Shown piece after piece: positions 41,116 to 63,780 of a DNA stretch of 64,000 bases (its first letter is position 1; each line of letters begins with the position of its first letter). Position numbers and translations under genes: made by a program. The notes under the pieces are model-generated. The model searched no databases. It was not told the DNA's origin and saw only the letters and a list, made by a program, of their open reading frames with translations. The stretch lies in NCBI RefSeq assembly GCF_056746865.1, contig NZ_CM163382.1. The stretch is one strand, 5' to 3'.

Positions 41116-41126
41116 GGAAAGCCATC

Positions 41127-41378: not shown

Positions 41379-41382
41379 TCTG

Positions 41383-41964
41383 ATGTCGGGCATTCGCTCG
41401 CTACCGATGATTAAGCTGCTGACTGGATTATTGCTGCTCGCCTGGCCGTTTGTGATTTGGTTTGGCCTGGCGCATAACGGCCTGCACTGGTTGTTGCCGC
41501 TAATAGCGTTGCTGCTATTGTTGCGCCTGCGCCAGACCCGTCGCCGGGCGGGGCCGCTACAAGCCGTCACACAAATCGTCGCTGTCGTGGGCATCGCATT
41601 GTGTGTCGCCAGCTTTCTGTTGAAAACGCACCAGCTACTGCTGTTTTACCCGGTAGTGGTTAACGCGATCATGCTGGCGGTTTTTGGCGGTTCGCTGTGG
41701 TCGACAATGCCGATAGTTGAGCGGCTGGCACGTTTGCAGGAGCCAGACCTCCCGGAAAAGGGCGTGCGCTATACCCGCCGTGTCACGCAAATCTGGTGCG
41801 GCTTTTTCATCATTAACGGCGGAATTGCCCTCTTTACCGCGCTTTATGGCGATATGTCGTTATGGACCGCCTGGAACGGCATGATTGCTTATTTTTTGAT
41901 GGGAACGTTAATGGCAGGTGAATGGCTGGTGCGCCGTCAGGTGATAAAAAGAGATCGCTCATGA
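41383..41964 (+). CDS. Integral membrane protein of unknown function (ApeG-like)
   Basis: 193-aa ORF with about 4 hydrophobic helices. Confidence 0.6.
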   Translation: MSGIRSLPMIKLLTGLLLLAWPFVIWFGLAHNGLHWLLPLIALLLLLRLRQTRRRAGPLQAVTQIVAVVGIALCVASFLLKTHQLLLFYPVVVNAIMLAVFGGSLWSTMPIVERLARLQEPDLPEKGVRYTRRVTQIWCGFFIINGGIALFTALYGDMSLWTAWNGMIAYFLMGTLMAGEWLVRRQVIKRDRS

Positions 41965-43322: not shown

Positions 43323-43662
43323 AATCGAGCGCCATCAGGCACAAGCGAATCACCTTGAGATTGTTTTGCATCTCAGGGCAGATCTGTTCTGGTTTCGCGG
43401 CCATTTTGCCGTGCAGCCGTTACTCCCAGGAGTTGCACAAATCGACTGGGCGATGAGCTACGCGCTCACTCTGCTCGCGCCTGGCTGGCGTTTTCACTCT
43501 ATTCAGAACATCAAATTCCAGTCCCCGTTGCTGCCGGACAACCGCGTCACGCTCACGCTTAACTGGCAGGAAGAACGCCAGATTCTGAGCTTTAGCTATC
43601 AGCGTCACGACGGTGACGCCCGCCACACCGCCAGTAGCGGGAAGATCCGCCTATGTCGGTAA
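43309..43662 (+). CDS. Hotdog-fold 3-hydroxyacyl-ACP dehydratase (FabZ/FabA-like)
   Basis: About 117 aa with FRGHFAVQPLLPGVAQID, a typical dehydratase motif. Confidence 0.7.
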   Translation: MKPHEIERHQAQANHLEIVLHLRADLFWFRGHFAVQPLLPGVAQIDWAMSYALTLLAPGWRFHSIQNIKFQSPLLPDNRVTLTLNWQEERQILSFSYQRHDGDARHTASSGKIRLCR

Positions 43663-45329
43663 ACTTTTCTCCCTGCGTGTTGATCCCCTGCTACAACCAC
43701 GGCGCGATGATGCCGGGCGTGCTGGCGCGTCTTAAGCCATTTAATCTGCCCTGTATTGTAGTGGATGACGGCAGCGATGCCGCCACGCAACAGCAACTGG
43801 ATAATCTGGTTGCCGAACAGCCTGGCGTGACCTTAATTCGCCTGGCAGAAAACGCAGGCAAAGGCGCGGCAGTGATGCGTGGCTTACAGGCAGCGGCAGA
43901 CGCGGGCTTCAGCCATGCGGTGCAGGTGGATGCTGACGGTCAGCACGCGATTGAAGACATCCCTAAACTGCTGGCACTCGCTGAACAGCAGCCTGCGGCG
44001 CTGATCTCCGGCCAGCCGATTTACGATGACTCCATCCCCCGCTCACGGCTGTACGGGCGCTGGGTCACCCACGTGTGGGTATGGATCGAAACGCTCTCCC
44101 TGCAACTGAAAGACAGTATGTGCGGCTTTCGCGTTTATCCGGTTGCGCCAACGCTGCAACTGGCAAAATACGCTACCATCGGCAAGCGGATGGATTTTGA
44201 CACCGAAGTGATGGTGCGCCTCTACTGGCAGGGAAATACCAGTTATTTCGTGCCGACCCGCGTCACCTATCCGCTGGACGGGCTTTCGCATTTTGATGCC
44301 CTGAAAGATAACGTCCGCATCTCGCTGATGCACACACGTCTGTTTTTCGGCATGTTGCCGCGTATTCCTTCACTGCTGATGCGCCACTCTTCCAGCCACT
44401 GGGCGCGGCAGAGCGAAGTGAAAGGGTTATGGGGAATGCGCCTGATGCTGCTGGTCTGGCGTCTGCTGGGAAGAACTGCGTTTACCGCGCTGCTTTACCC
44501 GGTGGTGGGCGTCTACTGGCTCACCGCTGCTCGTGCACGTAAAGCGTCGCAAGACTGGCTCGCCCGTGTGCGCCAACAACAACCACAGGCAGCAAAACTC
44601 AACAGCTATCAGCATTTTCTACGTTTCGGCAACGCCATGCTCGACAAAATCGCCAGCTGGCGCGGCGAGCTGCAACTCGGGCGTGATGTGCTGTTTGCAC
44701 CAGGCGCAGAAGCGGCACTTAACGTCAGCGATCCGCGCGGCAAATTGCTGCTGGCCTCGCATCTTGGCGATGTGGAAGTGTGCCGGGCGCTGGCAAAAAT
44801 TCAGGGCTACAAAACCATTAACGCGCTGGTGTTTAGCGAAAACGCCCAACGCTTTAAACAGATAATGCAGGAGATGGCCCCGCAGGCAGGCATCAACCTG
44901 CTCCCGGTAACAGATATCGGCCCGGAAACCGCCATCCTGCTGAAAGAGAAGCTGGATAACGGCGAATGGGTGGCGATTGTCGGTGACCGCATCGCCGTCA
45001 ACCCGCAACGCGGCGGCGACTGGCGCGTCTGCTGGAGTCCGTTTATGGGCCAGCCTGCGCCTTTCCCACAGGGGCCGTTTATTCTTGCGTCTATTTTGCG
45101 CTGCCCGGTGAATCTGATTTTCGCCCTGCGCCAGCACGGCAAGCTGCATATTCACTGCGAAACCTTTGCCGACCCGCTGCTGTTGCCGCGTGGCGAACGC
45201 CAGCAGGCGCTGCAAAACGCTATCGATCATTACGCCGCGCGTCTGGAACATTACGCGCTCCAGTCGCCCCTCGACTGGTTTAATTTTTTCGATTTCTGGC
45301 AACTGCCGGAAGTCCAGGACAAGGAGTAA
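43653..45329 (+). CDS. Bifunctional protein: N-terminal GT2 glycosyltransferase fused to a C-terminal LpxL/HtrB-like lipid acyltransferase domain (ApeJ-like)
   Basis: 558-aa ORF; N-terminus CVLIPCYNHG...VVDDGSDA (GT-A fold); C-terminal half has LASHLGDVEV and IVGDR motifs resembling lipid A late acyltransferases. Confidence 0.7.
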   Translation: MSVNFSPCVLIPCYNHGAMMPGVLARLKPFNLPCIVVDDGSDAATQQQLDNLVAEQPGVTLIRLAENAGKGAAVMRGLQAAADAGFSHAVQVDADGQHAIEDIPKLLALAEQQPAALISGQPIYDDSIPRSRLYGRWVTHVWVWIETLSLQLKDSMCGFRVYPVAPTLQLAKYATIGKRMDFDTEVMVRLYWQGNTSYFVPTRVTYPLDGLSHFDALKDNVRISLMHTRLFFGMLPRIPSLLMRHSSSHWARQSEVKGLWGMRLMLLVWRLLGRTAFTALLYPVVGVYWLTAARARKASQDWLARVRQQQPQAAKLNSYQHFLRFGNAMLDKIASWRGELQLGRDVLFAPGAEAALNVSDPRGKLLLASHLGDVEVCRALAKIQGYKTINALVFSENAQRFKQIMQEMAPQAGINLLPVTDIGPETAILLKEKLDNGEWVAIVGDRIAVNPQRGGDWRVCWSPFMGQPAPFPQGPFILASILRCPVNLIFALRQHGKLHIHCETFADPLLLPRGERQQALQNAIDHYAARLEHYALQSPLDWFNFFDFWQLPEVQDKE

Positions 45330-45332
45330 AGG

Positions 45333-45755
45333 GTGCTTAACGATCCCCGATTTACCGCTGAAGTCGAGCTGACCATTCCCTTTCACGACGTCGATATGAT
45401 GGGCGTGGCCTGGCACGGTAACTATTTTCGCTACTTTGAAGTGGCCCGCGAGGCGCTGCTCAACCAGTTCAATTACGGCTATCGGCAGATGAAAGAGTCC
45501 GGTTATTTGTGGCCAGTGGTCGATGCGCGGGTGAAATATCGCCACGCCCTCACCTTTGAGCAACGCATCCGCGTGCGTGCACATATCGAAGAGTTCGAAA
45601 ACCGTCTGCGGATTGGCTATCAGATTTTCGATGCCGAAACGGGCAAACGCGCCACCACCGGATACACCATTCAGGTCGCGGTCGACGAGCAAAGCCGCGA
45701 ACTGTGCTTTGTCAGCCCCGATATTTTGTTTGAACGCATGGGAGTCAAACCATGA
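45333..45755 (+). CDS. 4HBT/YbgC-like hotdog thioesterase
   Basis: 140-aa ORF with a GTG start and the motif FHDVDMMGVAWHGNYFRYFE. Confidence 0.75.
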   Translation: MLNDPRFTAEVELTIPFHDVDMMGVAWHGNYFRYFEVAREALLNQFNYGYRQMKESGYLWPVVDARVKYRHALTFEQRIRVRAHIEEFENRLRIGYQIFDAETGKRATTGYTIQVAVDEQSRELCFVSPDILFERMGVKP

Positions 45756-46357
45756 AATTTTTACCACTGCTGGCGCTGCTGATTAGCCCGTTTGTGAGCG
45801 CCCTGAACCTGGACGATCTTCAGCAACGCTTTACCGAACAGCCGGTGATCCGCGCTCATTTCGATCAAACCCGGACGATTAAAGATCTGCCGCAGCCGCT
45901 ACGATCTCAGGGCCAGATGTTGATCGCCCGCGACCAGGGGCTGTTGTGGGATCAAACCTCACCATTTCCCATGCAACTATTGCTGGACGATAAACGCATG
46001 GTGCAGGTGATCAACGGTCAGCCGCCGCAAATCATCACGGCAGAAAATAACCCGCAGATGTTCCAGTTTAACCACCTGCTGCGCGCGCTGTTCCAGGCCG
46101 ATCGCAAAGTGCTGGAACAAAATTTCCGCGTCGAATTTGCTGACAAAGGCGAAGGCCGCTGGACACTGCGCCTGACGCCGACCACCACGCCGCTGGATAA
46201 AATTTTCAACACCATCGATCTCGCCGGGCAAACCTATCTGGAGAGCATTCAGCTTAATGATAAACAGGGCGATCGCACCGATATCGCTCTTACCCAACAT
46301 CAACTGACGCCAGCGCAACTGACCGATGACGAACGCCAACGTTTTGCCGCCCAGTAA
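45752..46357 (+). CDS. LolA-like outer-membrane lipoprotein carrier protein
   Basis: 201-aa ORF with a signal peptide (MKFLPLLALLISPFVSA); LolA-like length and composition. Confidence 0.65.
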   Translation: MKFLPLLALLISPFVSALNLDDLQQRFTEQPVIRAHFDQTRTIKDLPQPLRSQGQMLIARDQGLLWDQTSPFPMQLLLDDKRMVQVINGQPPQIITAENNPQMFQFNHLLRALFQADRKVLEQNFRVEFADKGEGRWTLRLTPTTTPLDKIFNTIDLAGQTYLESIQLNDKQGDRTDIALTQHQLTPAQLTDDERQRFAAQ

Positions 46358-48644
46358 ACGCCCGGCGCTGTTATGGGGGATCGTCTGCCTGGTCATGGCG
46401 GCGGCGTTGCTGATCCTGTTGCCGCAATCACGACTGAACAGTAGCGTGCTGGCTATGTTACCCAAACAGGCGATGGGCGATATTCCTCCAGCGCTGAATG
46501 ACGGCTTTATGCAGCGTCTGGACCGCCAACTGGTGTGGCTGGTCAGCCCCGGTAAAGAGGCTAATCCCAGGGTGGCTCAGGAGTGGCTGACGCTGCTGCA
46601 AAAATCCGCTGCGCTCGGCGACGTTAAAGGGCCAATGGATGCCGCCAGCCAGCAGGCGTGGGGAGCGTTTTTCTGGCAGCACCGCAACGGCCTGGTTGAC
46701 CCCGACACCCGCGCGCGCCTGCAAAACGGCGGCGAAGCGCAGGCGCAGTGGATCCTCTCCCAGCTTTATTCTGCGTTCTCCGGGGTAAGCGGTAAGGAGC
46801 TGCAAAACGATCCGCTGATGTTAATGCGTGGCTCGCAGCTGGCGATGGCGAAAAACGGCCAGCGTTTGCGGCTGATGGACGGCTGGCTGGTGACGCAGGA
46901 TCCCCAGGGCAACTACTGGTATCTGCTGCACGGCGAACTGGCGGGATCGTCGTTTGATATGCAGCAAACCCACCAGCTCATCACGACCCTGAATACGCTG
47001 GAAAAGGATCTGAAAACGCGTTACCCGCAGGCGCAGTTGCTCTCGCGCGGCACGGTGTTTTACAGCGATTACGCCAGCCAACAGGCGAAGCAGGATATCT
47101 CCAACCTGGGCGTGGCAACGCTGCTGGGGGTGATATTACTGATTGTGGCGGTGTTCCGCTCTTTACGCCCATTGCTGCTTTGCGTGATTTCCATCGGCAT
47201 CGGCGCGCTGGCGGGAACGGTCGCCACCTTGTTGATTTTCGGCGAATTACACCTGATGACGCTGGTGATGAGCATGAGCGTTATCGGCATTTCCGCTGAC
47301 TACACGCTCTATTACCTCACCGAGCGGATGGTGCACGGCAATGACGTTTCGCCGTGGCAAAGCCTGGCGAAAGTGCGCAATGCCCTGCTGCTGGCGCTGC
47401 TCACCACCGTGGCGGCGTATCTGATTATGATGCTCGCCCCCTTCCCCGGCATTCGCCAGATGGCGATTTTTGCCGCCGTCGGGTTGAGCGCCTCCTGTCT
47501 GACCGTCCTGTTCTGGCATCCGTGGCTGTGCCGTGGCCTGCCGGTGCGTCCGGTTCCGGCGATGGCGCTGATGCTGCGCTGGCTGGCTGCGTGGCGGCGT
47601 AATAAAAAACTGTCGCTGGGTCTGCCCGTCGCGCTGGCGCTGTTTTCGCTGGCGGGGATGTCAATGCTGCGCGTCGACGACGATATCTCGCAGTTACAGG
47701 CGCTACCGCAGCATATTCTGGCCCAGGAGAAAGCCATTACCGCCCTGACCGGACAAAGCGTCGATCAAAAATGGTTTGTAGTTTACGGCGACTCTCCACA
47801 GCAAACATTGCGGCGGCTGGAGAAATTTACCGCCTCGCTGGAGAATGCGAAAAAAGAGGGGCTTATCAGCAACTACCGCACCATTCCGCTGAACTCCCTG
47901 GCGCGGCAGGAGGAAGATTTACATCTGCTGAAAACGGCTGCCCCGACAGTAACAAAAGCACTGCAAAATGCCGGGCTGGCGGCAGTGAATCCGGATCTCA
48001 ACGCCATGCCAGTGAAGGTCGATGAATGGCTGGCAAGCCCCGCCAGTGAAGGCTGGCGTCTGCTGTGGCTGACGCTGAAAAACGGCGAAAGCGGCGTACT
48101 GGTGCCGGTTGAAGGGGTTAAAAGTAGCGCGTTGTTGCAGGAAATCGCCAGCGATTACCCTGGCGGCATTGCCTGGGTTGATCGCAAAAGCACCTTTGAT
48201 GAGTTGTTCGCACTTTACCGCTACGTCTTAACCGGTTTGTTGCTGGTGGCGCTGGCGGTGATTGCCTGCGGCGCAGTGGCCCGCCTCGGCTGGCGCAAAG
48301 GGCTTATCAGCCTGGTGCCTTCGGTACTTTCGCTGGGCTGCGGTCTGGCAGTGCTGGCGATGAGCGGGCAGGCGGTGAATCTCTTTTCGCTACTGGCGCT
48401 GGTGCTGGTGCTTGGCATCGGCATCAATTACACGCTGTTTTTCAGTAATCCGCGCGGTACACCGTTAACTTCCCTACTGGCGATCACGCTGGCAATGCTC
48501 ACCACCTTGCTGGCGCTGGGAATGCTGGTATTCAGCGCCACCCAGGCCATCAGCAGTTTTGGCATTGTGCTGGTGAGCGGTATTTTCACCGCCTTCCTGC
48601 TTTCGCCGCTGGCTATGCCCGATAAAAAGAGAACAAAAAAATGA
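46326..48644 (+). CDS. MMPL/RND-superfamily exporter (start codon uncertain)
   Basis: 772-aa ORF with two blocks of about 6 TM helices separated by soluble domains. Confidence 0.75.
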   Translation: MTNANVLPPSKRPALLWGIVCLVMAAALLILLPQSRLNSSVLAMLPKQAMGDIPPALNDGFMQRLDRQLVWLVSPGKEANPRVAQEWLTLLQKSAALGDVKGPMDAASQQAWGAFFWQHRNGLVDPDTRARLQNGGEAQAQWILSQLYSAFSGVSGKELQNDPLMLMRGSQLAMAKNGQRLRLMDGWLVTQDPQGNYWYLLHGELAGSSFDMQQTHQLITTLNTLEKDLKTRYPQAQLLSRGTVFYSDYASQQAKQDISNLGVATLLGVILLIVAVFRSLRPLLLCVISIGIGALAGTVATLLIFGELHLMTLVMSMSVIGISADYTLYYLTERMVHGNDVSPWQSLAKVRNALLLALLTTVAAYLIMMLAPFPGIRQMAIFAAVGLSASCLTVLFWHPWLCRGLPVRPVPAMALMLRWLAAWRRNKKLSLGLPVALALFSLAGMSMLRVDDDISQLQALPQHILAQEKAITALTGQSVDQKWFVVYGDSPQQTLRRLEKFTASLENAKKEGLISNYRTIPLNSLARQEEDLHLLKTAAPTVTKALQNAGLAAVNPDLNAMPVKVDEWLASPASEGWRLLWLTLKNGESGVLVPVEGVKSSALLQEIASDYPGGIAWVDRKSTFDELFALYRYVLTGLLLVALAVIACGAVARLGWRKGLISLVPSVLSLGCGLAVLAMSGQAVNLFSLLALVLVLGIGINYTLFFSNPRGTPLTSLLAITLAMLTTLLALGMLVFSATQAISSFGIVLVSGIFTAFLLSPLAMPDKKRTKK

Positions 48645-49225
48645 TCAAACCCACATTCTGGCGAGCGTTCGCCCTGACCGCTACGCTTATCCTCACCGGC
48701 TGTAGCCACTCGCAACCGGAACAGGAAGGTCGCCCACAGGCGTGGCTGCAACCTGGCACGCGCATCACGCTGCCGGCACCAGGGATTTCGCCCGCCGTTA
48801 ATTCCCAGCAACTATTGAGCGGCAGCTTCAACGGCAAAACCCAGTCTCTGCTAGTGATGCTTAACGCCGACGACCAGAAAATCACCCTTGCCGGGCTGTC
48901 GTCGGTCGGCATTCGTCTGTTTCTGGTGACCTACGATGCGCAAGGGCTACGCGCCGAGCAATCCATCGTCGTCCCACAGTTGCCGCCCGCAAGTCAGGTG
49001 CTGGCTGACGTGATGCTTAGCCACTGGCCGATTAGCGCCTGGCAACCGCAACTCCCCGCTGGATGGACGCTTCGCGACAACGGTGACAAACGCGAACTGC
49101 GTAACGCCAGCGGCAAACTGGTCACGGAAATCACCTATCTGAATCGCCAGGGAAAACGCGTGCCAATCAGCATTGAACAGCATGTCTTTAAATACCACAT
49201 CACCATTCAATATTTAGGTGACTGA
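48641..49225 (+). CDS. Lipoprotein (DUF3261-like, possibly LolB-like)
   Basis: 194-aa ORF with a lipobox (LTGC). Confidence 0.65.
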   Translation: MIKPTFWRAFALTATLILTGCSHSQPEQEGRPQAWLQPGTRITLPAPGISPAVNSQQLLSGSFNGKTQSLLVMLNADDQKITLAGLSSVGIRLFLVTYDAQGLRAEQSIVVPQLPPASQVLADVMLSHWPISAWQPQLPAGWTLRDNGDKRELRNASGKLVTEITYLNRQGKRVPISIEQHVFKYHITIQYLGD

Positions 49226-50396
49226 TATGATTTACATTTCCGCCGTCGGCATGATCAACGCCCTGGGAAATAACCTTGACGATATCGCAGCCAACCTGAC
49301 TCGCGGTGTCGCTCCCGGCATGCGCCCGCGCGCAGGCTGGTTGCAGGGGCATCCGCAGGCGGTCCTGGCTGGCGTGGATGGCGAGCTTCCGGTTATCCCG
49401 GAAAAATTCGCTGCGCACCGCTCGCGCAACAATCAGATCCTGCTGGCGGCGCTGGCGCAGATCCAGCCGCAGGTTGATGACGCTATTGCGAAATATGGCC
49501 GCGAGCGCATCGCGATTGTGCTTGGCACCAGCACCTCCGGCCTGCATGAAGGCGACACGCACGTTAACCTGCGCACCCACGGGCAGCCGAGCACCACGTG
49601 GCACTATGCACAACAAGAGCTCGGCGATCCGTCGCGTTTTCTCAGCCACTGGCTGGCGCTCGACGGCCCAGCTTATACCCTTTCAACCGCCTGCTCCTCC
49701 AGTGCCAGAGCGATGATCAGCGGGCGCAGGCTTATCGAGGCGGGGCTGGTCGATGCCGCCATTGTGGGTGGTGCAGACACCCTGAGCCGAATGCCGATTA
49801 ACGGTTTTCACAGCCTCGAATCGCTCTCGCCAACCTTATGTCAGCCGTTTGGTCGTGACCGCGCGGGCATCACCATTGGCGAAGGTGCGGGGCTGATGCT
49901 GTTGACCCGCGAACCGCAGCCCATCGCCTTGCTGGGCGTCGGTGAATCGAGCGACGCTTATCATATTTCGGCCCCGCATCCACAGGGCGAAGGCGCAATT
50001 CGCGCCATTAACCAGGCGCTGGCTGATGCGCAGCTTACGCCGGATGAGGTGGGCTATATCAACCTGCACGGCACCGCCACACAACTCAACGACCAGATTG
50101 AATCGATGGTGGTAAACGCCCTGTTTGGCGAACGCGTACCGTGCAGCTCCACCAAACATTTGACCGGACACACGCTGGGCGCAGCGGGCATTACCGAAGC
50201 GGCAATCAGTATGTTGATCTTAGAGCGTGATTTACCGCTGCCCGCTCAGGACTTCAGCCTGTCGCCGCGCGATCCCACGCTGCCACCGTGCGGCATTATC
50301 GAACAACCACAGCCGCTGGCACGTCCGGTGATCCTGTCCAATTCCTTCGCCTTTGGCGGCAATAACGCCAGCATTCTGCTCGGGAGGGTTTCGTGA
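49218..50396 (+). CDS. Beta-ketoacyl-ACP synthase (KS, ApeO-like)
   Basis: Active-site Cys (LSTACSSSARAM), HGTAT, and NSFAFGGNNASIL. Confidence 0.85.
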   Translation: MTDMIYISAVGMINALGNNLDDIAANLTRGVAPGMRPRAGWLQGHPQAVLAGVDGELPVIPEKFAAHRSRNNQILLAALAQIQPQVDDAIAKYGRERIAIVLGTSTSGLHEGDTHVNLRTHGQPSTTWHYAQQELGDPSRFLSHWLALDGPAYTLSTACSSSARAMISGRRLIEAGLVDAAIVGGADTLSRMPINGFHSLESLSPTLCQPFGRDRAGITIGEGAGLMLLTREPQPIALLGVGESSDAYHISAPHPQGEGAIRAINQALADAQLTPDEVGYINLHGTATQLNDQIESMVVNALFGERVPCSSTKHLTGHTLGAAGITEAAISMLILERDLPLPAQDFSLSPRDPTLPPCGIIEQPQPLARPVILSNSFAFGGNNASILLGRVS

Positions 50397-50857
50397 GCCA
50401 CTATTTATCCCCCGGCGCTTATCTGCCCCACGACGCGCCCATGTTACTGCTGGAAGAAGTGGTGAGCGTCAGCGATGACAGCGCGGTGTGCCGTGTAACG
50501 GTCTCGCCCAGTGGCGTACTGGCACCGTTTCTCGACCCGGACGGCAATCTCCCTGGCTGGTTTGCCCTTGAATTGATGGCGCAAACCGTCGGCGTCTGGT
50601 CTGGCTGGCATCGCCACCAGCAGGGCAAAAACAGTATTGAGTTAGGGATGGTACTGGGCGCACGTGAATTGCTTTGCGCCGCTGGCATTCTGCCCGCAGG
50701 CCAGACGCTGACCATTACCGTCAAACTCCTGATGCAAGACGATCGCTTCGGCAGTTTTGAGTGCAGCATCAACAACGGCACGGCAACGGGCCGCATTAAC
50801 ACCTTCCAGCCGACCGCGGAAGAACTTACCACCCTGTTTCAACAAGGAGCGTCCTGA
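50393..50857 (+). CDS. Hotdog-fold dehydratase (FabA/FabZ-like, ApeP-like)
   Basis: 154-aa ORF overlapping the neighbouring genes; hotdog-like length and motif spacing. Confidence 0.6.
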   Translation: MSHYLSPGAYLPHDAPMLLLEEVVSVSDDSAVCRVTVSPSGVLAPFLDPDGNLPGWFALELMAQTVGVWSGWHRHQQGKNSIELGMVLGARELLCAAGILPAGQTLTITVKLLMQDDRFGSFECSINNGTATGRINTFQPTAEELTTLFQQGAS

Positions 50858-51588
50858 TGAGTCGTTCAGTTCTGGTTACTGGTGCCAGCAAAGGCATTGG
50901 TCGCGCCATCGCCTGCCAACTGGCGGCAGACGGCTTTAATATTGGCGTTCACTATCACCGTGACGCCACAGGCGCTCAGGAAACGCTAAATGCCATTGTC
51001 GCCAACGGGGGTAACGGGCGTTTGCTCAGTTTCGACGTCGCAAACCGCGAACAGTGTCGGGAAGTGCTGGAGCACGAAATCGCGCAAAACGGTGCCTGGT
51101 ACGGCGTGGTTAGTAACGCCGGGATCGCCCGCGATGCCGCTTTTCCGGCTTTAAGCGATGACGACTGGGATGCGGTGATCCACACCAATCTCGACAGTTT
51201 CTACAACGTTATTCAGCCGTGCATTATGCCGATGATCGGCACACGCCAGGGTGGACGCATCATCACGCTGTCCTCGGTTTCCGGCGTGATGGGCAATCGC
51301 GGACAGGTGAACTACAGCGCTGCCAAAGCCGGAATTATCGGCGCAACAAAAGCACTGGCTATCGAACTCGCGAAGCGCAAAATCACCGTCAACTGCATCG
51401 CGCCGGGGCTTATTGATACCGGGATGATCGAAATGGAAGAGAGCGCCCTGAAAGAGGCAATGTCGATGATCCCCATGAAACGCATGGGCCAGGCGGAAGA
51501 AGTTGCCGGGCTTGCCAGCTATTTAATGTCTGATATTGCGGGTTACGTCACCCGCCAGGTTATTTCCATCAACGGAGGGATGTTATGA
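50857..51588 (+). CDS. 3-oxoacyl-ACP reductase (SDR, FabG-like)
   Basis: VLVTGASKGIGRAIA Rossmann motif and YSAAKAG catalytic motif. Confidence 0.88.
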   Translation: MSRSVLVTGASKGIGRAIACQLAADGFNIGVHYHRDATGAQETLNAIVANGGNGRLLSFDVANREQCREVLEHEIAQNGAWYGVVSNAGIARDAAFPALSDDDWDAVIHTNLDSFYNVIQPCIMPMIGTRQGGRIITLSSVSGVMGNRGQVNYSAAKAGIIGATKALAIELAKRKITVNCIAPGLIDTGMIEMEESALKEAMSMIPMKRMGQAEEVAGLASYLMSDIAGYVTRQVISINGGML

Positions 51589-52814
51589 CACGTCGCGTAG
51601 TGATTACAGGAATGGGCGGCGTGACTGCCTTTGGTGAAAACTGGCAGGACGTTTCCGCGCGTCTGCTGGCGTATGAGAATGCAGTGCGCAAAATGCCGGA
51701 GTGGCAGGTCTACGATGGTCTGCACACCCTGCTTGGCGCGCCTGTTGATGATTTCACGCTACCGGAGCACTACACCCGCAAGCGTATCCGTGCGATGGGC
51801 CGCGTGTCGCAAATGTCGACCCGTGCCAGCGAGCTGGCGTTAGAGCAGGCAGGATTGATTGGCGATCCGATATTAACCAGCGGCGAAACGGGCATTGCGT
51901 ACGGTTCATCGACCGGCAGTACCGGTCCGGTGAGCGAATTTGCCACCATGCTGACGGAAAAGCACACCAATAACATCACCGGCACCACCTATGTACAGAT
52001 GATGCCGCACACCACCGCCGTTAATACCGGTCTGTTTTTCGGCCTGCGCGGGCGGGTGATCCCGACCTCCAGCGCCTGTACCTCCGGCAGCCAGGCGATC
52101 GGTTATGCGTGGGAAGCCATTCGCCACGGTTATCAAACGGTGATGGTTGCTGGTGGTGCCGAAGAGTTATGCCCTTCAGAAGCAGCGGTATTTGATACAC
52201 TTTTCGCCACCAGCCAGCACAATGATGCGCCGAAAACCACACCTTCACCGTTCGATGAAAACCGCGACGGGCTGGTGATTGGTGAAGGCGCAGGTACGCT
52301 GATTCTTGAAGAACTGGAGCACGCCAAAGCGCGCGGCGCGACCATTTACGGTGAAATCGTCGGCTTTGCGACTAACTGCGACGCGGCACATATTACCCAG
52401 CCTCAGCGTGAGACCATGCAATATTGTATGGAAAAATCGTTAAAAATCGCCGGGTTAAGTGCAAGTGATATCGGCTATATTTCGGCGCATGGTACGGCGA
52501 CCGATCGTGGTGATATGGCAGAAAGTCTGGCGACAGCAACCATTTACGGTGATAATGTGCCGCTCTCCTCGCTGAAAAGTTATTTTGGTCATACGCTTGG
52601 TGCCTGTGGCGCGCTCGAAGCCTGGATGAGTCTGCAAATGATGCGCGAAGGTTGGTTTGCGCCTACGCTAAACCTGAATAAACCAGACCCGAACTGTGGC
52701 GCGCTGGATTACATCATGCATGAAGCCCGCAAGGTTGATTGTGAGTTTTTGCAGAGTAACAACTTTGCCTTTGGCGGCATTAATACATCCATCATCATTA
52801 AACGTTGGCCCTGA
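51585..52814 (+). CDS. Beta-ketoacyl-ACP synthase (KS, ApeR-like)
   Basis: Active-site Cys (SSACTSGSQAIG), HGTAT and GHTLGACG. Confidence 0.88.
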   Translation: MTRRVVITGMGGVTAFGENWQDVSARLLAYENAVRKMPEWQVYDGLHTLLGAPVDDFTLPEHYTRKRIRAMGRVSQMSTRASELALEQAGLIGDPILTSGETGIAYGSSTGSTGPVSEFATMLTEKHTNNITGTTYVQMMPHTTAVNTGLFFGLRGRVIPTSSACTSGSQAIGYAWEAIRHGYQTVMVAGGAEELCPSEAAVFDTLFATSQHNDAPKTTPSPFDENRDGLVIGEGAGTLILEELEHAKARGATIYGEIVGFATNCDAAHITQPQRETMQYCMEKSLKIAGLSASDIGYISAHGTATDRGDMAESLATATIYGDNVPLSSLKSYFGHTLGACGALEAWMSLQMMREGWFAPTLNLNKPDPNCGALDYIMHEARKVDCEFLQSNNFAFGGINTSIIIKRWP

Positions 52815-52815
52815 T

Positions 52816-53403
52816 ATGTATCGGATAGTTCTGGGGAAAGTTTCGACCTTAAGCGCAGCTCCACTGCCACCGGCTTTACGCGATCAAGCACCGCAAGGTC
52901 CACGACGCGAACGCTGGCTGGCGGGGCGTGCATTACTTTCGCACACGCTTTCCCCGCTACCGGAGATCATCTATGGCGAACAAGGCAAACCGGCATTCGC
53001 GCCGGAAACGCCGCTATGGTTCAACTTAAGCCATAGCGGTGACGATATCGCCCTGCTGTTGAGCGATGAAGGCGAAGTCGGCTGCGATATCGAAGTGATT
53101 CGCCCGCGCGCCAACTGGCGCTGGCTGGCGAACGCCGTGTTCAGCCTCGGGGAACACGCTGAGATGGACGCCGTGCATCCCGATCAGCAACTGGAAATGT
53201 TCTGGCGCATCTGGACGCGCAAAGAAGCCATCGTTAAACAGCGTGGCGGCAGCGCCTGGCAAATCGTCAGCGTAGACAGCACCTATCACTCATCACTGTC
53301 AGTCAGCCATTGTCAGCTAGAAAATTTAAGCCTGGCGATCTGCACCCCTACCCCCTTTACGCTCTCCGCCGACAGTGTGCAATGGATCGATTCAGTTAAC
53401 TGA
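52816..53403 (+). CDS. acpT: 4'-phosphopantetheinyl transferase (holo-ACP synthase 2)
   Basis: Internal start MYRIVLGKVSTLSAAPLPPALRD gives 195 aa; the ATG lies 1 bp after the stop of the upstream KS gene. Confidence 0.88.
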   Translation: MYRIVLGKVSTLSAAPLPPALRDQAPQGPRRERWLAGRALLSHTLSPLPEIIYGEQGKPAFAPETPLWFNLSHSGDDIALLLSDEGEVGCDIEVIRPRANWRWLANAVFSLGEHAEMDAVHPDQQLEMFWRIWTRKEAIVKQRGGSAWQIVSVDSTYHSSLSVSHCQLENLSLAICTPTPFTLSADSVQWIDSVN

Positions 53404-53448: not shown

Positions 53449-53476
53449 GTATGACGAATACTTAAAATCGTCATAC
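53449..53476 (+). promoter_or_regulatory. NikR operator in the nikA promoter
   Basis: GTATGA-N16-TCATAC dyad, 38 bp upstream of the nikA ATG. Confidence 0.85.
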
Positions 53477-53513: not shown

Positions 53514-55088
53514 ATGTTCTCTACACTCCGCCGCACTCTATTTGCGCTGCTGGCTTGTGCGTCTTTTATCGTCCATGCCGCTGCACCAGATGAAATCACC
53601 ACCGCCTGGCCGGTGAATGTCGGGCCACTAAACCCGCACCTTTACACGCCTAACCAGATGTTCGCCCAGAGCATGGTTTATGAACCATTGGTGAAATATC
53701 AGGCAGACGGTTCGGTGATCCCGTGGCTGGCAAAAAGCTGGACTCATTCTGAAGATGGCAAAACCTGGACCTTCACCCTGCGTGATGACGTGAAATTCTC
53801 CAACGGCGAACCGTTTGATGCAGAGGCGGCGGCAGAAAACTTCCGCGCAGTGCTCGATAACCGTCAACGTCACGCCTGGCTGGAGCTGGCAAACCAGATT
53901 GTTGATGTCAAAGCACTCAGTAAAAACGAGCTGCAAATCACCCTGAAAAGCGCCTACTATCCTTTCCTGCAAGAACTGGCCCTGCCCCGTCCTTTCCGTT
54001 TTATCGCACCCTCGCAGTTTAAAAACCACGAAACCATGAACGGAATTAAAGCGCCGATTGGCACCGGGCCGTGGGTTTTACAGGAATCGAAACTGAATCA
54101 GTACGATGTCTTCGTCCGTAACGAAAACTACTGGGGCGAAAAGCCAGCGATTAAAAAGATCACCTTTAACGTGATCCCGGACCCGACTACCCGCGCGGTG
54201 GCGTTTGAAACTGGCGATATCGACCTGCTGTACGGAAACGAAGGGTTATTACCGCTCGATACCTTCGCCCGCTTTAGCCAGAACCCGGCTTACCACACCC
54301 AACTGTCACAGCCGATCGAAACCGTGATGCTGGCGCTCAATACCGCCAAAGCCCCCACCAACGAGCTGGCCGTACGTGAAGCTCTTAATTACGCGGTAAA
54401 CAAAAAATCGCTGATTGATAACGCGTTGTATGGCACCCAGCAGGTCGCCGACACCCTGTTTGCTCCTTCTGTACCCTACGCCAACCTCGGCCTGAAACCG
54501 CGCCAGTACGATCCGCAGAAAGCGAAAGCGTTGCTGGAAAAAGCCGGTTGGACGTTGCCTGCGGGCAAAGACATCCGCGAGAAAAATGGTCAGCCGCTGC
54601 GCATTGAACTGTCGTTCATCGGCACCGATGCGTTAAGTAAATCGATGGCGGAAATCATTCAGGCTGATATGCGCCAGGTTGGCGCAGATGTCTCGCTGAT
54701 TGGCGAAGAAGAGAGCAGTATCTATGCTCGTCAGCGCGACGGTCGTTTTGGCATGATTTTCCACCGCACCTGGGGCGCGCCATACGATCCACACGCCTTC
54801 CTGAGTTCAATGCGCGTACCGTCGCACGCTGATTTCCAGGCACAGCAAGGATTAGCCGACAAGCCGCTGATTGATAAAGAGATCGGCGAAGTGCTGGCAA
54901 CCCATGACGAAACGCAACGTCAGGCGCTGTATCGCGACATTCTGACCCGTCTGCATGACGAGGCGGTTTATCTGCCTATCAGTTACATCTCAATGATGGT
55001 GGTATCAAAACCGGAGCTGGGTAACATCCCCTACGCGCCGATCGCCACCGAAATTCCGTTCGAACAGATTAAACCGGTGAAACCTTAA
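53514..55088 (+). CDS. nikA: Periplasmic nickel-binding protein
   Basis: 524-aa ORF with a signal peptide. Confidence 0.93.
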
Positions 55089-59024: not shown

Positions 59025-59779
59025 GTGCGCGCCATGAAATCATTGAGTAAGTCGTCACAAATACCGCTCTATCAACAAGTGGTGGAGTGGATAAGAGAAA
59101 ATATTTATACCGGGGATCTGGTGGAAGACGATCGCATTCCTTCGGAATACCAGATTATGGATATGCTGGAAGTGAGTCGGGGAACCGTTAAAAAAGCTGT
59201 CGCCCAACTGGTAAAACAAGGCGTGTTGATTCAGGTCCAGGGGAAGGGAACATTTGTCAAAAAAGAGAACGTGGCATATCCGTTAGGTGAAGGATTATTG
59301 TCATTCGCGGAATCGCTGGAAAGCCAGAAAATACACTTTACCACTGAAGTTATTACGTCACGGATTGAACCGGCTAATCGTTATGTGGCAGAGAAATTAA
59401 GAATAACGCCCGGTCAGGATATTCTTTACCTTGAGCGTTTACGTTCAATTGGTGATGAAAAAGCGATGCTGATAGAGAACCGTATCAATATTGAGCTATG
59501 CCCCGGCATCGTGGAAATCGATTTTAATCAACACAATTTATTTCCAACAATAGAAAGTTTGTCGAAAAGAAAAATTCGTTACTCGGAAAGTCGCTATGCC
59601 GCGCGATTAATTGGTAATGAACGCGGTCATTTTTAGATATCTGTGAAGATGTACCCGTTTTGCATCTGGAGCAATTAGTCTTTTTCTCCCGAGAGTTACC
59701 CGTTGAGTTTGGCAACGTCTGGTTAAAAGGAAATAAATATTATCTGGGCACCGTGCTGCAACGGCGGGAATTGAGTTAA
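59025..59779 (+). pseudogene. GntR/HutC-family transcriptional regulator, frameshifted in a T5 run (about 59630..59634)
   Basis: N-terminal winged HTH (IPSEYQIMDMLEVSRGTVKKAV) and a UTRA-like C-terminal domain; the frame stops at 59634..59636, but the +1 frame continues DICEDVPVLHLEQLVFFSRELPVEFGNVWLKGNKYYLGTVLQRRELS to 59779. Confidence 0.65.
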
Positions 59780-59803
59780 ATACACTTTTTTATGAGGAAT
59801 AAA

Positions 59804-60277
59804 ATGCAAGGCATACAGTTTCAGGAAAATTATATTCAACGACTTCCGGCAGGGTTAAGCGTTGAACAGATCATCCGTCAGTTAGCGCAACCGTTGGTTG
59901 CTGCTGAGCTGGTGGTCCCTGATTTTGCCGATCACGTACTGAAACGTGAGGCGACGTACCCAACGGGGCTGCCTACCGAACCACCGTGCGTCGCCATTCC
60001 GCACACGGACCATAAATATGTCAGGCACAATGCAATTGCCGTCGGCATCCTTCCGGAACCGGTAGAGTTTGCCGATATGGGCGGCGATCCTGACCCCGTA
60101 CATGTCAGGGTGATTTTTTTGCTCGCCTTAAGTGAAAGTAATAAACAATTAAATGCCCTGGGCTGGATTATGGAGATGATTCAGGATACGCCCTTTATGC
60201 GCGCCCTGCTTACGATGGAAACAACAGAAATACACACAGTAATCTTAAACAAAATGAAAGAACGAGGTGAAATATGA
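59804..60277 (+). CDS. PTS EIIA component (galactitol-family)
   Basis: Phosphorylation-site His motif VAIPHTDHKYV, GatA-like; GAGGA ribosome-binding site upstream of the ATG at 59804. Confidence 0.75.
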   Translation: MQGIQFQENYIQRLPAGLSVEQIIRQLAQPLVAAELVVPDFADHVLKREATYPTGLPTEPPCVAIPHTDHKYVRHNAIAVGILPEPVEFADMGGDPDPVHVRVIFLLALSESNKQLNALGWIMEMIQDTPFMRALLTMETTEIHTVILNKMKERGEI

Positions 60278-60555
60278 GTCAAACCATTTTATTTGTCTGC
60301 GCCACGGGTATTGCCACATCCACGGCGGTAACAGAAAAAGTCATGGAATATTGTAAAGAGCACGGTCTTAACGTCAATTATTCCCAAACCAACGTTGCCT
60401 CTTTACCTGGAAATACTGACGGCGTAGCACTGGTAGTCTCAACGACTAAAGTGCCTTATGAACTCGACGTCCCGGTGGTTAACGGCTTGCCGATTATTAC
60501 CGGTATTGGCGAAGAGAAAGTACTGGCGCAAATTGTTTCGATCCTTAAAAAGTAA
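60274..60555 (+). CDS. PTS EIIB component (galactitol-family)
   Basis: 93-aa ORF with the active-site Cys motif ILFVCATGIATS. Confidence 0.8.
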   Translation: MSQTILFVCATGIATSTAVTEKVMEYCKEHGLNVNYSQTNVASLPGNTDGVALVVSTTKVPYELDVPVVNGLPIITGIGEEKVLAQIVSILKK

Positions 60556-60631
60556 TTAATAATAATTAATTTCAACCCACTCCATCAGGCGCTAACGCGA
60601 GGTGCGCTCTCGCCTGAAAAAGAGGTTTATT

Positions 60632-61990
60632 ATGAACGATATCGCGCATACCCTCTATAATATTGTGCAATATATATTGGGATTTGGTCCCACGGTAATG
60701 TTGCCGTTGGTGTTATTTATTCTTGCTCTCTTTTTTAAAGTAAAACCCGCTAAAGCCTTACGTTCGTCATTAACGGTCGGCATTGGTTTTGTCGGTATTT
60801 ATGCCATTTTCGATATTCTTACCAGCAATGTCGGGCCAGCGGCCCAGGCGATGGTTGAACGCACCGGAATTAATTTACCGGTGGTGGATTTAGGCTGGCC
60901 GCCGCTTTCCGCTATTACATGGGGTTCGCCAATTGCCCCGTTTGTTATTCCCCTGACTATTCTGATTAACGTGGCGATGCTGGCGTTAAATAAAACCCGC
61001 ACCGTTGACGTAGATATGTGGAACTACTGGCATTTTGCCCTTGCCGGTACGCTGGTTTATTACAGCACCGGCAGCCTGTTCTTTGGTTTGCTGGCAGCGG
61101 CGATTGCTGCGGTGGTAGTACTTAAACTCGCCGACTGGTCTGCGCCACTGGTACAAAAATACTTTGGCCTGGAAGGGATCTCTTTGCCGACGCTCTCTTC
61201 GGTGGTGTTCTTTCCGGTCGGTCTGTTGGTCGACAAAATCATCGACCATATCCCCGGCCTCAATCGTATTCATATCGATCCGGAAACCGTACAGAAAAAG
61301 TTTGGCATATTCGGCGAACCGATGATGGTTGGTACTATTCTGGGCATTCTGCTCGGCGTAATTGCCGGATACGATTTCAAAAAAGTCTTGCTGCTTGGCA
61401 TCAGCATTGGCGGTGTGATGTTCATCCTGCCACGCATGGTTCGCATTCTGATGGAAGGTTTATTACCGCTGTCTGAAGCCATTAAAAAGTATCTCAATGC
61501 CAAATACCCTGACCGTGACGATCTCTATATCGGCCTGGATATCGCCGTTGCCGTAGGTAACCCAGCGATTATCTCCACCGCCCTGCTGCTGACGCCAATC
61601 TCGGTCTTTATCGCGTTTGTCCTTCCGGGTAATGAAGTCCTGCCGCTTGGCGACCTTGCCAACCTGGCGGTAATGGCGTCGATGATTGCTTTAGCCAGCC
61701 GTGGCAACATTTTCCGCACCGTTCTGGCGGCGATTCCGGTGATTATTGCCGATCTGTGGATTGCGACTAAAATCGCGCCGTTTATTACCGGAATGGCGAA
61801 AGACGTTAATTTCAAATTTGCCGAAGGCTCCAGCGGCCAGGTCTCCAGTTTCCTTGATGGCGGTAACCCGTTCCGCTTCTGGCTGCTGGAAATCTTCAAC
61901 GGCAATCTCATCGCCATTGGTCTGGTGCCGGTTATCGCCCTGGTACTGTATGGTATTTTCCGAATGACGCGGAGCACGGTTTATGCCTGA
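60632..61990 (+). CDS. PTS EIIC permease (GatC-like)
   Basis: About 452 aa; LGFGPTVMLP and GPAAQAMVERTGINLPVVDLGWP resemble GatC. Confidence 0.8.
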   Translation: MNDIAHTLYNIVQYILGFGPTVMLPLVLFILALFFKVKPAKALRSSLTVGIGFVGIYAIFDILTSNVGPAAQAMVERTGINLPVVDLGWPPLSAITWGSPIAPFVIPLTILINVAMLALNKTRTVDVDMWNYWHFALAGTLVYYSTGSLFFGLLAAAIAAVVVLKLADWSAPLVQKYFGLEGISLPTLSSVVFFPVGLLVDKIIDHIPGLNRIHIDPETVQKKFGIFGEPMMVGTILGILLGVIAGYDFKKVLLLGISIGGVMFILPRMVRILMEGLLPLSEAIKKYLNAKYPDRDDLYIGLDIAVAVGNPAIISTALLLTPISVFIAFVLPGNEVLPLGDLANLAVMASMIALASRGNIFRTVLAAIPVIIADLWIATKIAPFITGMAKDVNFKFAEGSSGQVSSFLDGGNPFRFWLLEIFNGNLIAIGLVPVIALVLYGIFRMTRSTVYA

Positions 61991-63491: not shown

Positions 63492-63750
63492 AACCGTGGA
63501 GGTCAGAAACAGTACTGGCCTGCATGCACGTCCGGCGGCGTGTCTGGTGAAAGCCGCCAAAAAGTTTAGCTGTAAAGTGACGCTGCATTATGAGGGTAAT
63601 GATATTAATGCCACCAGCATGATGAATATTATGCGCGCCGGAATAAAAGGCGGCAAAACGGTGGAAATACGCTGCGAAGGCGATGATGAAAATGAGGCAA
63701 TACAAACTCTCACCACCTTATTTCGTGACCGCTTCGGTGAAGCTGAATAA
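63481..63750 (+). CDS. HPr-like phosphocarrier protein
   Basis: 89-aa ORF with the active-site His motif NSTGLHARPAA. Confidence 0.8.
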   Translation: MLSKTVEVRNSTGLHARPAACLVKAAKKFSCKVTLHYEGNDINATSMMNIMRAGIKGGKTVEIRCEGDDENEAIQTLTTLFRDRFGEAE

Positions 63751-63780
63751 TTAACTGATATTAAAAGATGAGGTTTTCAA

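Follow-up and report, generated by a model that had tools for sequence, protein, structure and literature searches.

A phosphopantetheinyl transferase gene, acpT, at the end of the enterobacterial aryl-polyene cluster and its probable orphaning by cluster loss

Background

The closest described relative of the locus analyzed here is the acpT gene of Escherichia coli O157:H7 EDL933, which lies beside "O-island 138" (De Lay & Cronan 2006, Mol Microbiol 61:232). The locus, the gene order and the 1-nt gap ahead of acpT are the same in both, and nothing essential differs, the strain studied here being 118UI-like and not O157:H7. According to that work, as cited in PMC8253772, the cognate carrier proteins of AcpT are the two acyl carrier proteins (ACPs) of the adjacent cluster, which are lost in K-12, and the ApeE and ApeF homologs of O157:H7 are activated by AcpT in vitro. 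The position of acpT at the end of the cluster is thus already known, having been described in 2006, and what is shown here is its conservation across enterobacteria. At the time of that description, the cluster had not yet been recognized as an aryl-polyene (APE) one.

The other close relative is APE_Ec of E. coli CFT073 (c1186-c1204; Cimermancic 2014; Johnston 2021, PMC8253772), in which all 18 genes, apeA to apeR, recur in an unchanged order, with reading frames that overlap or abut. This copy, about 95% identical to the one described here, makes a cell-bound yellow aryl-polyene pigment, as reported in PMC8253772. Unlike the cluster described here, it lies in an island that carries an integrase gene, downstream of dgcT and at a distance of about 3 Mb, and the homology stops exactly at the stop codon of apeR, with no acpT next to it. 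CFT073 and Nissle 1917 are among the approximately 255-270 E. coli genomes with such an acpT-less island copy ending at the apeR stop codon; therefore the function of the pathway does not require physical linkage to acpT.

Gene content of the locus

We analyzed a 64,000-nt stretch of contig NZ_CM163382.1 (assembly GCF_056746865.1), hereafter the window. Judging from the RefSeq annotation of an identical genome and from NCBIfam matches, the window contains an 18-gene APE type II polyketide cluster, apeA-apeR, in the canonical order and corresponding gene for gene to the published table and to CFT073. The canonical parts are present, namely, tandem ACPs, the ApeH acyl-ACP synthetase, the ApeC/ApeO ketosynthase/chain-length factor pair, ApeR, the ApeI and ApeP dehydratases, the ApeQ reductase, and the LolA, MMPL and DUF3261 export genes. 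The yhhT/acpT/nikA locus has the "O-island 138" arrangement of O157:H7; an earlier, sequence-only reading of this DNA had described it without the APE identification. The features of the locus are as follows.

36357..37406, plus strand: yhhT, a transporter gene of the AI-2E family and the conserved flank on the left (RefSeq annotation of the identical genome; stop codon TAA read at 37404-37406)
37798..38175, plus strand: apeA, small lipoprotein-like protein, the first APE gene (position and size match apeA/c1204 of APE_Ec; no NCBIfam match)
38244..39302, plus strand: apeB, methyltransferase (annotation; FlxJ-family methyltransferase match in NCBIfam)
39343..40065, plus strand: apeC, chain-length factor (RefSeq annotation of the identical genome)
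40062..40883, plus strand: apeD, lysophospholipid acyltransferase (annotation; acyltransferase match in NCBIfam)
40858..41115, plus strand: apeE, carrier protein 1, 85 aa, predicted AcpT substrate (NF006617, 90.1 bits with a cut-off of 70; GLDSID serine motif)
41127..41378, plus strand: apeF, carrier protein 2, 83 aa, predicted AcpT substrate (NF003757, 146 bits with a cut-off of 65; LDSID serine motif)
41383..51588, plus strand: apeG to apeQ, encoding, in order, a hypothetical protein, acyl-ACP synthetase, dehydratase, glycosyltransferase, thioesterase, LolA-like protein, MMPL transporter, DUF3261 protein, ketosynthase ApeO, ApeP dehydratase and FabG2 ketoreductase (annotation and NCBIfam; order as in CFT073 c1198-c1187)
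51585..52814, plus strand: apeR, the last ketosynthase, 409 aa (stop codon TGA at 52812-52814; NCBIfam NF006587, 777 bits with a cut-off of 470)
52796..52815, plus strand: translation-initiation region of acpT, comprising the last 19 nt of apeR and the 1-nt spacer, apparently kept as a deletion scar in K-12-type genomes
52816..53403, plus strand: acpT, Sfp-type 4'-phosphopantetheinyl transferase (PPTase), 195 aa (MYRIVLGKV...), the terminal (19th) gene (NCBIfam equivalog NF007676)
53449..53476, plus strand: palindrome GTATGA-N16-TCATAC in the acpT-nikA spacer, a 10-bp RNA hairpin (fold z=-2.48) that marks the end of the ape/acpT unit
53514..55088, plus strand: nikA, the right flank, outside the cluster (RefSeq annotation of the identical genome)

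The palindrome at 53449..53476 is presumably the NikR operator. The apeR gene of the window shows about 95% nucleotide identity to the island copy of UPEC957C, whose ApeR protein shares its accession with that of CFT073.

The assignment of AcpT itself is based on the following matches: the protein aligns with the curated AcpT equivalog over residues 1-195 of 195 (395.5 bits, with a cut-off of 174), the ACPS domain PF01648 is detected at residues 88-164 (E=3.3e-11), and the nearest solved structure is that of Sfp (1qr0 and 4mrt, E=6e-9). The motifs VGCDIE (88-93; Mg-binding G-x-D-x-E) and WTRKEA (133-138; W-x-x-K-E-A) are invariant in the alignment, and both are retained in 77 of the 78 surveyed acpT genes when the conservative GCDVE variant of one of these (L051) is counted as kept.

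The apeR-acpT junction

Direct reading of the junction gives AAA CGT TGG CCC, the TGA stop codon of apeR (52812-52814), a single T (52815), and the ATG of acpT (52816-52818) followed by TAT CGG; the two genes, both on the plus strand, are separated by this one nucleotide. An identical pair of coding sequences with the 1-nt gap is annotated in RefSeq for strain 118UI, the genome of which is 100% identical to the window, and for O157:H7, to which the window is 97.6% identical, bearing out the earlier statement that the TGA is followed by the acpT ATG at 52816. Within the cluster, the gaps range from -32 to +11 nt at 15 of the 17 junctions (apeC/apeD to apeQ/apeR), and the +1 spacing before acpT falls in this range. 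A longer acpT open reading frame, starting from GTG at 52696 (235 aa), was rejected as the true start because the first two residues, M1-Y2, are invariant and the apeR-acpT gap is 1, 2 or 3 nt, so that the upstream frame relation is not conserved.

A signal scan detected no terminator-like site at the junction; neither there nor immediately downstream of the island copy of apeR was a qualifying hairpin or terminator found, and the RNA of the junction shows no structure (z=0.47). No sigma-70-like promoter was found on the plus strand between 48586 and 54000 in a consensus scan that is crude, with total site counts not above those in shuffled controls. The pairing between the Shine-Dalgarno sequence of acpT and the anti-Shine-Dalgarno sequence amounts to only -1.5 kcal/mol, compared to -8 to -11 kcal/mol for apeK, apeP, apeQ and apeR. 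Given the conserved short gap, the lack of signals at the junction and the weak Shine-Dalgarno sequence, the best reading is that apeR and acpT are most likely co-transcribed on one polycistronic mRNA and that acpT is most likely translated through termination-reinitiation coupling to apeR, which is suggested by the near-absent Shine-Dalgarno sequence combined with an AUG located 1 nt past the apeR UGA. We found in the literature no report of apeR-acpT expression or of a junction-spanning transcript, and the co-transcription proposed in the sequence-only reading stands as the best inference from gene arrangement.

Conservation and loss across enterobacteria

In a species-level survey of acpT loci, 80 loci were kept. 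In 59 species a ketosynthase gene is found upstream of acpT, and 21 are orphan species. All 80 loci carry Enterobacteriaceae labels, except for one Chryseobacterium record and one unclassified Proteobacteria metagenome-assembled genome. The spacing between apeR and acpT is 1-3 nt in all 59 cluster-bearing species (1 nt in 24, 2 nt in 32 and 3 nt in 3), and the apeR stop codon is TGA in 29, TAA in 27 and TAG in 3 of these. The genes located downstream of acpT vary: nikA occupies this position in only 5 of the 59 species, the arn operon is found there in Enterobacter, Klebsiella and Kosakonia, and Cronobacter and Atlantibacter, with a 2-nt gap, have an NlpC/P60 gene in the acpT context. The APE cluster of Pantoea, sampled as an example from outside Enterobacteriaceae, resembles that in the window in the order of apeM-apeR and in the sequence of ApeR (84% identity) but lacks a PPTase gene after apeR, which is followed instead, across a 165-nt gap, by a gene for a TonB-dependent receptor. 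A terminal acpT thus seems characteristic of the cluster as it occurs in enterobacteria.

In each of the 21 orphan species, acpT directly follows yhhT across a spacer of 51-159 nt. Ahead of acpT, orphan genomes, among them those of Salmonella and K-12-type E. coli, still contain the final 15-30 nt of apeR with its stop codon. In Megablast, the matches to E. coli without the cluster begin at position 52796 of the window, and 20 nt (52796..52815) are identical in the K-12-like locus; this remnant is well above shuffled sequences in the alignment (z=9.9). The interpretation of the whole 54-nt K-12 spacer as decayed apeR was rejected, given that the last 20 nt are convincingly homologous and the rest is not (z=1.2). 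In one orphan (L077), an independent deletion left a decayed apeR tail of about 150 nt (z=30). These remnants are, by their alignment with apeR, deletion scars, fitting the account of "orphaned AcpT" by De Lay & Cronan 2006, and the claim that acpT is orphaned in K-12 is confirmed at the sequence level by the last 20 nt of apeR that are retained directly upstream of the gene. A search of the rest of the window for direct repeats and for att-like copies of the K-12 spacer or the 20-nt apeR tail found none.

A small open reading frame with an ATG overlapping the yhhT stop codon and an end 1 nt before acpT occurs in four of the five Escherichia species and at every Salmonella locus, and Citrobacter NCU1 has a shorter one. 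As a general "relay" for coupling in orphans, this frame was rejected: the C. freundii group and the Enterobacter-like orphans either lack it or have it interrupted, and it is therefore not a general requirement.

Origin of the arrangement and expression of acpT

Taking the reading as a whole, we consider it very probable that the yhhT-acpT interval is the ancestral enterobacterial location of the APE cluster, that acpT closes the unit as its 19th gene, that AcpT activates ApeE and ApeF, and that the orphans arose by the loss of apeA-apeR. Under this scenario, apeA-apeR would have been deleted in most E. coli (K-12 type), in Salmonella and in several lineages of Citrobacter and Enterobacter, and the deletions would have spared acpT along with its short upstream initiation region, leaving the gene "orphaned" beside yhhT. 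The opposite course of events, in which acpT is a core gene and the cluster ("O-island 138") is a horizontally acquired island inserted beside it, with the adjacency being incidental and functionally uninformative, might be suggested by the distribution of the two in complete E. coli genomes, where acpT is present in 5425 of 5426 and the apeR-acpT junction in 569, as well as by the evident mobility of the cluster, a copy of which is carried by CFT073, Nissle 1917 and UPEC957C on an island with an integrase. Such an insertion appears highly improbable, and is largely refuted by the apeR remnant itself, because an empty insertion site in cluster-less genomes would not hold the end of apeR with its stop codon. 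The left boundary of the cluster also shows no duplication of a target sequence, the adjacency of apeR and acpT holds in all 59 cluster-bearing species despite the varied downstream flanks, and L077 bears an independent deletion that left about 150 nt of apeR in place.

Within the scenario of ancestral linkage, acpT could still be a separate, abutting unit that is transcribed mainly from a promoter of its own within the 3' portion of apeR, or in some other independent way. Internal overlapping promoters are common in long operons, a promoter inside apeR would be compatible with the crudeness of the sigma-70 consensus scan, and acpT remains intact in the orphans, at the short distance from yhhT given above, and so is expressible in the absence of apeR; therefore coupling to apeR is not the sole possible route of expression. 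We nevertheless regard this arrangement as unlikely: the scan yielded no candidate site, the spacing is conserved while the stop codon and the spacer bases change, the very weak Shine-Dalgarno sequence fits dependence on upstream translation, and read-through from yhhT could supply the acpT transcript in the orphans. The co-transcription of acpT with apeR, accompanied by translational coupling, is accordingly the reading retained here.

AcpT as the activator of the cluster carrier proteins

The sequence-only reading had designated the PPTase as the dedicated activator of the two cluster ACPs. The activator part of this claim agrees with the in vitro data (De Lay & Cronan 2006, cited in PMC8253772): AcpT would convert ApeE and ApeF from the apo to the holo form at the serine of the LDSID motifs, and holo-ApeE and holo-ApeF would be a prerequisite for the assembly of the aryl-polyene chain. 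The "dedicated" part is unproven by adjacency alone and may be too narrow, given that orphan acpT is subject to purifying selection. The gene survives repeated deletions of apeA-apeR, each of the surviving deletions sparing its short upstream initiation region, and is kept nearly universally in E. coli; purifying selection is apparent in Salmonella, the C. freundii group and most E. coli, where no ape genes are seen at the locus. The median dN/dS is 0.070 for orphan-orphan pairs (34 pairs) compared to 0.146 for linked-linked pairs (173 pairs).

These observations raise the possibility, which we hold only tentatively, that AcpT is not dedicated to ApeE and ApeF and that a second, cluster-independent role explains its near-universal retention, the APE carrier proteins being one client among others. 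The gene is intact in all 21 orphan species and its catalytic motifs are kept in 20 of these; furthermore, overproduction of AcpT suppresses yejM/lapC defects and stabilizes LpxC in K-12, which lacks the ape genes (PMC8745692, PMC7773988). On the opposite side, this suppression requires overexpression and has no known mechanism (PMC7773988), the retention in E. coli could reflect service in trans to island-borne ape clusters, and both catalytic motifs are missing from one orphan (L090). It is conceivable, albeit with considerable doubt, that AcpT is more than a private activator. It might have a second client or function, which could be linked to the envelope phenotype of YejM/LpxC, or it might be retained as a resident "socket" acting in trans, through which mobile, acpT-less APE islands of the CFT073 type can function as soon as they arrive.

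Implications

With respect to the link between acpT and the cluster, the present analysis restates the 2006 result and is therefore confirmatory. It reconciles two literatures, that on fatty acid synthesis and PPTases, in which AcpT activates the ACPs of "O-island 138", and that on aryl polyenes, in which the CFT073 model includes no PPTase. In the native enterobacterial APE locus, acpT appears as the conserved 19th gene, and the CFT073 cluster as an island copy cut at the apeR stop codon. If the heterologous host Top10 is, as we take it to be, a K-12 derivative and hence possesses chromosomal acpT, the CFT073 cluster has always been expressed heterologously in a host that carries this gene. 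PMC8253772 says of Top10 only that it is a standard strain for cloning and lacks the native biosynthetic gene cluster. These considerations bear on the definition of cluster boundaries in genome mining and on the expression of APE clusters in non-enterobacterial hosts, and AcpT is a possible target against APE-dependent biofilm formation and oxidative-stress fitness.

Comparison with known systems

Several group II PPTases are encoded within their own clusters, namely, EntD (enterobactin), ClbA (colibactin island) and Sfp (surfactin). Like AcpT, these enzymes are encoded alongside the carrier proteins that they activate. In PMC4103896, the group II PPTases listed for E. coli include AcpT and EntD, which are only 28% identical to each other; PMC9125672 names clbA as the PPTase of the colibactin island. 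With 195 aa, AcpT is shorter than Sfp, which consists of about 230 aa. The systems served by these enzymes differ as well: the EntD, ClbA and Sfp systems are built of non-ribosomal peptide synthetase or type I polyketide synthase modules, whereas AcpT serves a type II polyketide synthase with free-standing ACPs.

Genomic context and identity of acpT

To delineate the relationship between acpT and the genes upstream of it, we read the junction directly in the window and compared the gene array with annotated aryl-polyene (APE) clusters. The features concerned are as follows.

36357..37406, + strand: yhhT, left flank (annotation)
37798..52814, + strand: 18 same-strand genes between yhhT and acpT (annotation and NCBIfam)
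40858..41115, + strand: apeE, tandem carrier protein (LDSID serine motif)
41127..41378, + strand: apeF, tandem carrier protein (LDSID serine motif)
51585..52814, + strand: apeR, beta-ketoacyl-ACP synthase, 409 aa, last ketosynthase (ORF and NCBIfam)
52812-52814, + strand: apeR stop codon TGA (direct reading)
52815, + strand: single-T spacer (direct reading)
52816, + strand: acpT start codon ATG (direct reading)
52816..53403, + strand: acpT, 195 aa (ORF translation)

The junction reads ...AAA CGT TGG CCC TGA T ATG TAT CGG..., so that the 1-bp gap between the last ketosynthase gene and acpT, noted in the sequence-only reading, is borne out; the RefSeq annotation of E. coli strain 118UI, which is 100% identical to the window over the apeR-acpT stretch, gives both genes with the same 1-nt gap, and the O157:H7 junction is that of the window. 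The apeR product scores 777 bits against NCBIfam NF006587 (cut-off 470). The acpT product is identified as AcpT, an Sfp-type 4'-phosphopantetheinyl transferase (PPTase), by the NCBIfam equivalog NF007676 (395.5 bits, cut-off 174), the Pfam ACPS domain and structure comparison, in which Sfp is the nearest solved relative.

Most of the 18 upstream genes abut or overlap. They encode, in order, a small lipoprotein-like protein, a methyltransferase, a chain-length factor and a lysophospholipid acyltransferase; the two carrier proteins; a hypothetical protein, an acyl-ACP synthetase, a FabZ-like dehydratase, a glycosyltransferase and a thioesterase; a LolA-like protein, an MMPL transporter and a DUF3261 protein; and, finally, a ketosynthase, the ApeP dehydratase, the FabG2 reductase and the last ketosynthase. 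By its gene-for-gene match to the apeA-apeR cluster of E. coli CFT073 (Table 1 of PMC8253772), this array is identified as the APE cluster, the last ketosynthase being ApeR and the two carrier proteins ApeE and ApeF. All features by which AcpT and an APE cluster are recognizable in sequence were found. The AT-rich yhhT-apeA spacer (37407..37797, 391 nt) contains the sole promoter-like site detected upstream of the cluster by a consensus scan (TTGCCT-17-TATAGT, 37592..37620), a candidate cluster promoter; the only other sizeable gaps are apeA-apeB (68 nt) and apeB-apeC (40 nt).

Conservation of the apeR-acpT adjacency

For a survey at species level, a single genome of each species was searched with an AcpT alignment (M1 and Y2 invariant), and 80 loci were retained; apart from one Chryseobacterium and one unclassified Proteobacteria MAG, all carry the label Enterobacteriaceae. 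An ApeR orthologue (>60% identical, directly upstream of acpT) is present in 59 of these, with a gap of 1-3 nt in every case (1 nt in 24 loci, 2 nt in 32, 3 nt in 3). This holds despite the diversity of apeR stop codons (TGA 29, TAA 27, TAG 3), spacer bases and downstream genes: nikA follows acpT in only 5 of the 59 linked loci. Downstream of acpT, Enterobacter, Klebsiella and Kosakonia have the convergent arn operon, Citrobacter has genes for a decarboxylase and a LysR regulator with the nik genes beyond them, and Cronobacter and Atlantibacter, in which the gap before the PPTase gene is 2 nt, have an NlpC/P60 gene. By this comparison, no other feature of the locus is as well conserved as the adjacency of apeR and acpT. 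With gaps of 1, 2 or 3 nt, the two genes keep no constant reading-frame relation, which excludes an apeR-acpT fusion and also a longer acpT beginning further upstream, such as the 235-aa ORF that starts at GTG 52696.

A Pantoea APE cluster encodes an ApeR 84% identical to that of the window but has a TonB-dependent receptor gene, and no PPTase gene, after apeR; hence a terminal acpT seems to be confined to the enterobacterial form of the cluster. Records labelled Chryseobacterium sp. 18061 (L073) and Vibrio parahaemolyticus (P0005) also contain apeR-acpT loci or AcpT proteins of the enterobacterial type; they are probably contaminated or mislabelled rather than real transfers.

Orphan acpT genes and deletion scars

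Among 5426 complete E. coli genomes, acpT is present in 5425 and the apeR-acpT junction in 569; in genomes without the junction, the match to the window starts at 52796. In a K-12-like genome, 54 nt separate yhhT from acpT, and the 20 nt that immediately precede the acpT ATG, CATTAAACGTTGGCCCTGAT, match the apeR end perfectly, including the stop codon (z=9.9). The alternative that an island inserted beside an unrelated core gene, acpT, is essentially excluded by the presence of such apeR remnants in cluster-less loci: no cluster gene would have left its 3' end at an empty insertion site, and the K-12-type remnant is, on this sequence evidence, a deletion scar. In all 21 species-level loci without apeR, yhhT lies directly upstream of acpT (gaps of 51-159 nt). 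The remnants differ, with 15 nt (14 matching) in Salmonella, 30 nt in Citrobacter NCU1-type loci, a decayed ~25 nt in the C. freundii group and a decayed tail of ~150 nt (z=30) in an Enterobacter MAG (L077), indicating that apeA-apeR was deleted independently on at least two or three occasions. Every surviving deletion spared acpT and its immediate upstream region. The title of a 2006 paper by De Lay and Cronan reportedly describes AcpT as orphaned from its cognate carrier proteins; the scars support this claim, and the retained 20-nt apeR tail upholds the view of the sequence-only reading that AcpT is orphaned in K-12.

Some orphan loci contain a mini-ORF whose ATG overlaps the yhhT stop (ATGA) and whose TGA is separated by 1 nt from the acpT start codon. 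It reads MRRQVIRYALSFSIKRWP in K-12-like E. coli (L002 3963..4019) and MRRQMLQSPLLHRQRWS in Salmonella enterica (L003 5946..5999), the two lengths being exactly one codon apart. Through this mini-ORF, translation of acpT could be coupled to that of yhhT. Escherichia sp. MOD1-EC7003, the C. freundii group and Enterobacter-like orphans either lack it or have it interrupted.

Island copies of the cluster without acpT

The CFT073 genes c1186-c1204, the model APE cluster of the literature, occupy another locus, an integrase-bearing island after dgcT (1.144-1.159 Mb, minus strand), with no acpT near the cluster; the copies in UPEC957C and Nissle 1917 are arranged likewise. The island cluster (CFT073, Nissle 1917, UPEC strains) is ~95% identical to that of the window. 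In the alignment, homology halts exactly at the apeR stop codon (boundary between ...CTGGCCCTGA and GTTATACAACC; L097 ~6215 in UPEC957C and L098 33727 in CFT073, NC_004431.1 position 1,143,727), and pseudogene debris (garD, DeoR and aldolase fragments) follows. Given that apeR is found in 839 E. coli genomes versus 569 with the junction, about 255-270 genomes carry only an acpT-less copy and must depend on an orphan acpT elsewhere in the genome, acting in trans. Top10 is presumably a K-12 derivative with a chromosomal acpT. The CFT073 cluster was expressed in this host, of which the paper says no more than that it is a standard cloning strain lacking the native BGC (PMC8253772).

Expression of acpT

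The +1 gap before acpT falls within the range at all junctions from apeC/apeD to apeQ/apeR (-32 to +11 nt). Consensus scans detected no sigma-70-like sites on the + strand of 48586-54000 and no terminator-like sites at or near the junction, and the predicted fold of the 120 nt around it is no more stable than that of shuffled controls (z=0.47). Most likely, apeR and acpT would share one polycistronic mRNA, on which ribosomes that have terminated at the apeR UGA would start again at the acpT AUG, 1 nt further on; an additional internal promoter for acpT is possible. No transcript data for apeR-acpT were found in the literature searched.

Pairing of the anti-Shine-Dalgarno sequence with the 17 nt in front of the acpT AUG yields only -1.5 kcal/mol, compared with -8 to -11 for apeK, apeP, apeQ and apeR. 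In several genera (junctions L073-L075, L078, L082, L084 and L088), the ApeR C-terminus ...KRWE*, encoded by TGGGAGTAA, creates a GGGAG Shine-Dalgarno motif 7-11 nt before the acpT ATG, and the E. coli end ...KRWP*, encoded by TGGCCCTGA, lacks one. The apeR end appears to double as the acpT ribosome-binding region to a lineage-dependent degree, and lineages probably differ in how far acpT translation depends on coupling as opposed to direct initiation.

The acpT-nikA spacer contains a perfect palindrome (GTATGA-N16-TCATAC, 53449..53476), which we take to be the NikR operator. The corresponding RNA folds into a 10-bp hairpin with UAUUU after it (fold z=-2.48), and the palindrome might also lower read-through from acpT into nikA. 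Between nikR and yhhJ (window ~59034..64000; L001 26735..32334) are annotated a GntR regulator, galactitol-type PTS IIA/IIB/IIC, an FGGY kinase, HPr and a class II aldolase. These genes seem to form an accessory module of their own for carbohydrate uptake, with no relation to ape/acpT.

Function and retention of AcpT

PMC8253772, citing De Lay & Cronan 2006, attributes to AcpT the in vitro activation of the O157:H7 homologues of ApeE/F, an account that the deletion scars support. The term "dedicated" activator used in the sequence-only reading may be too strong. All 21 orphan species have an intact acpT, and its median pairwise dN/dS is 0.070 among orphans (34 pairs) versus 0.146 among linked genes (173 pairs). 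The catalytic motifs are kept in all orphan AcpT except that of Enterobacter sp. RIT418 (L090 4001..4600, frame intact, 199 aa), which has GCSLE for GCDIE and WTRKGA for WTRKEA and may be PPTase-dead; no apeR remnant is recognizable in its yhhT-acpT spacer. Overproduced AcpT suppresses yejM/lapC defects and stabilizes LpxC in K-12 (PMC8745692, PMC7773988). Orphan acpT may be retained owing to a second function or to service in trans to mobile APE islands.

Relation to known systems

The arrangement in the window is already known from O157:H7 "O-island 138", reportedly described, with acpT, by De Lay and Cronan in 2006, and is seen here in a 118UI-like strain. What the present analysis adds is the comparative confirmation in 59/59 species, the evidence of the deletion scars, and a reconciliation of the AcpT literature with that on aryl polyenes. 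By analogy with EntD and ClbA, which are cluster-encoded Sfp-type PPTases, AcpT is predicted to work likewise.
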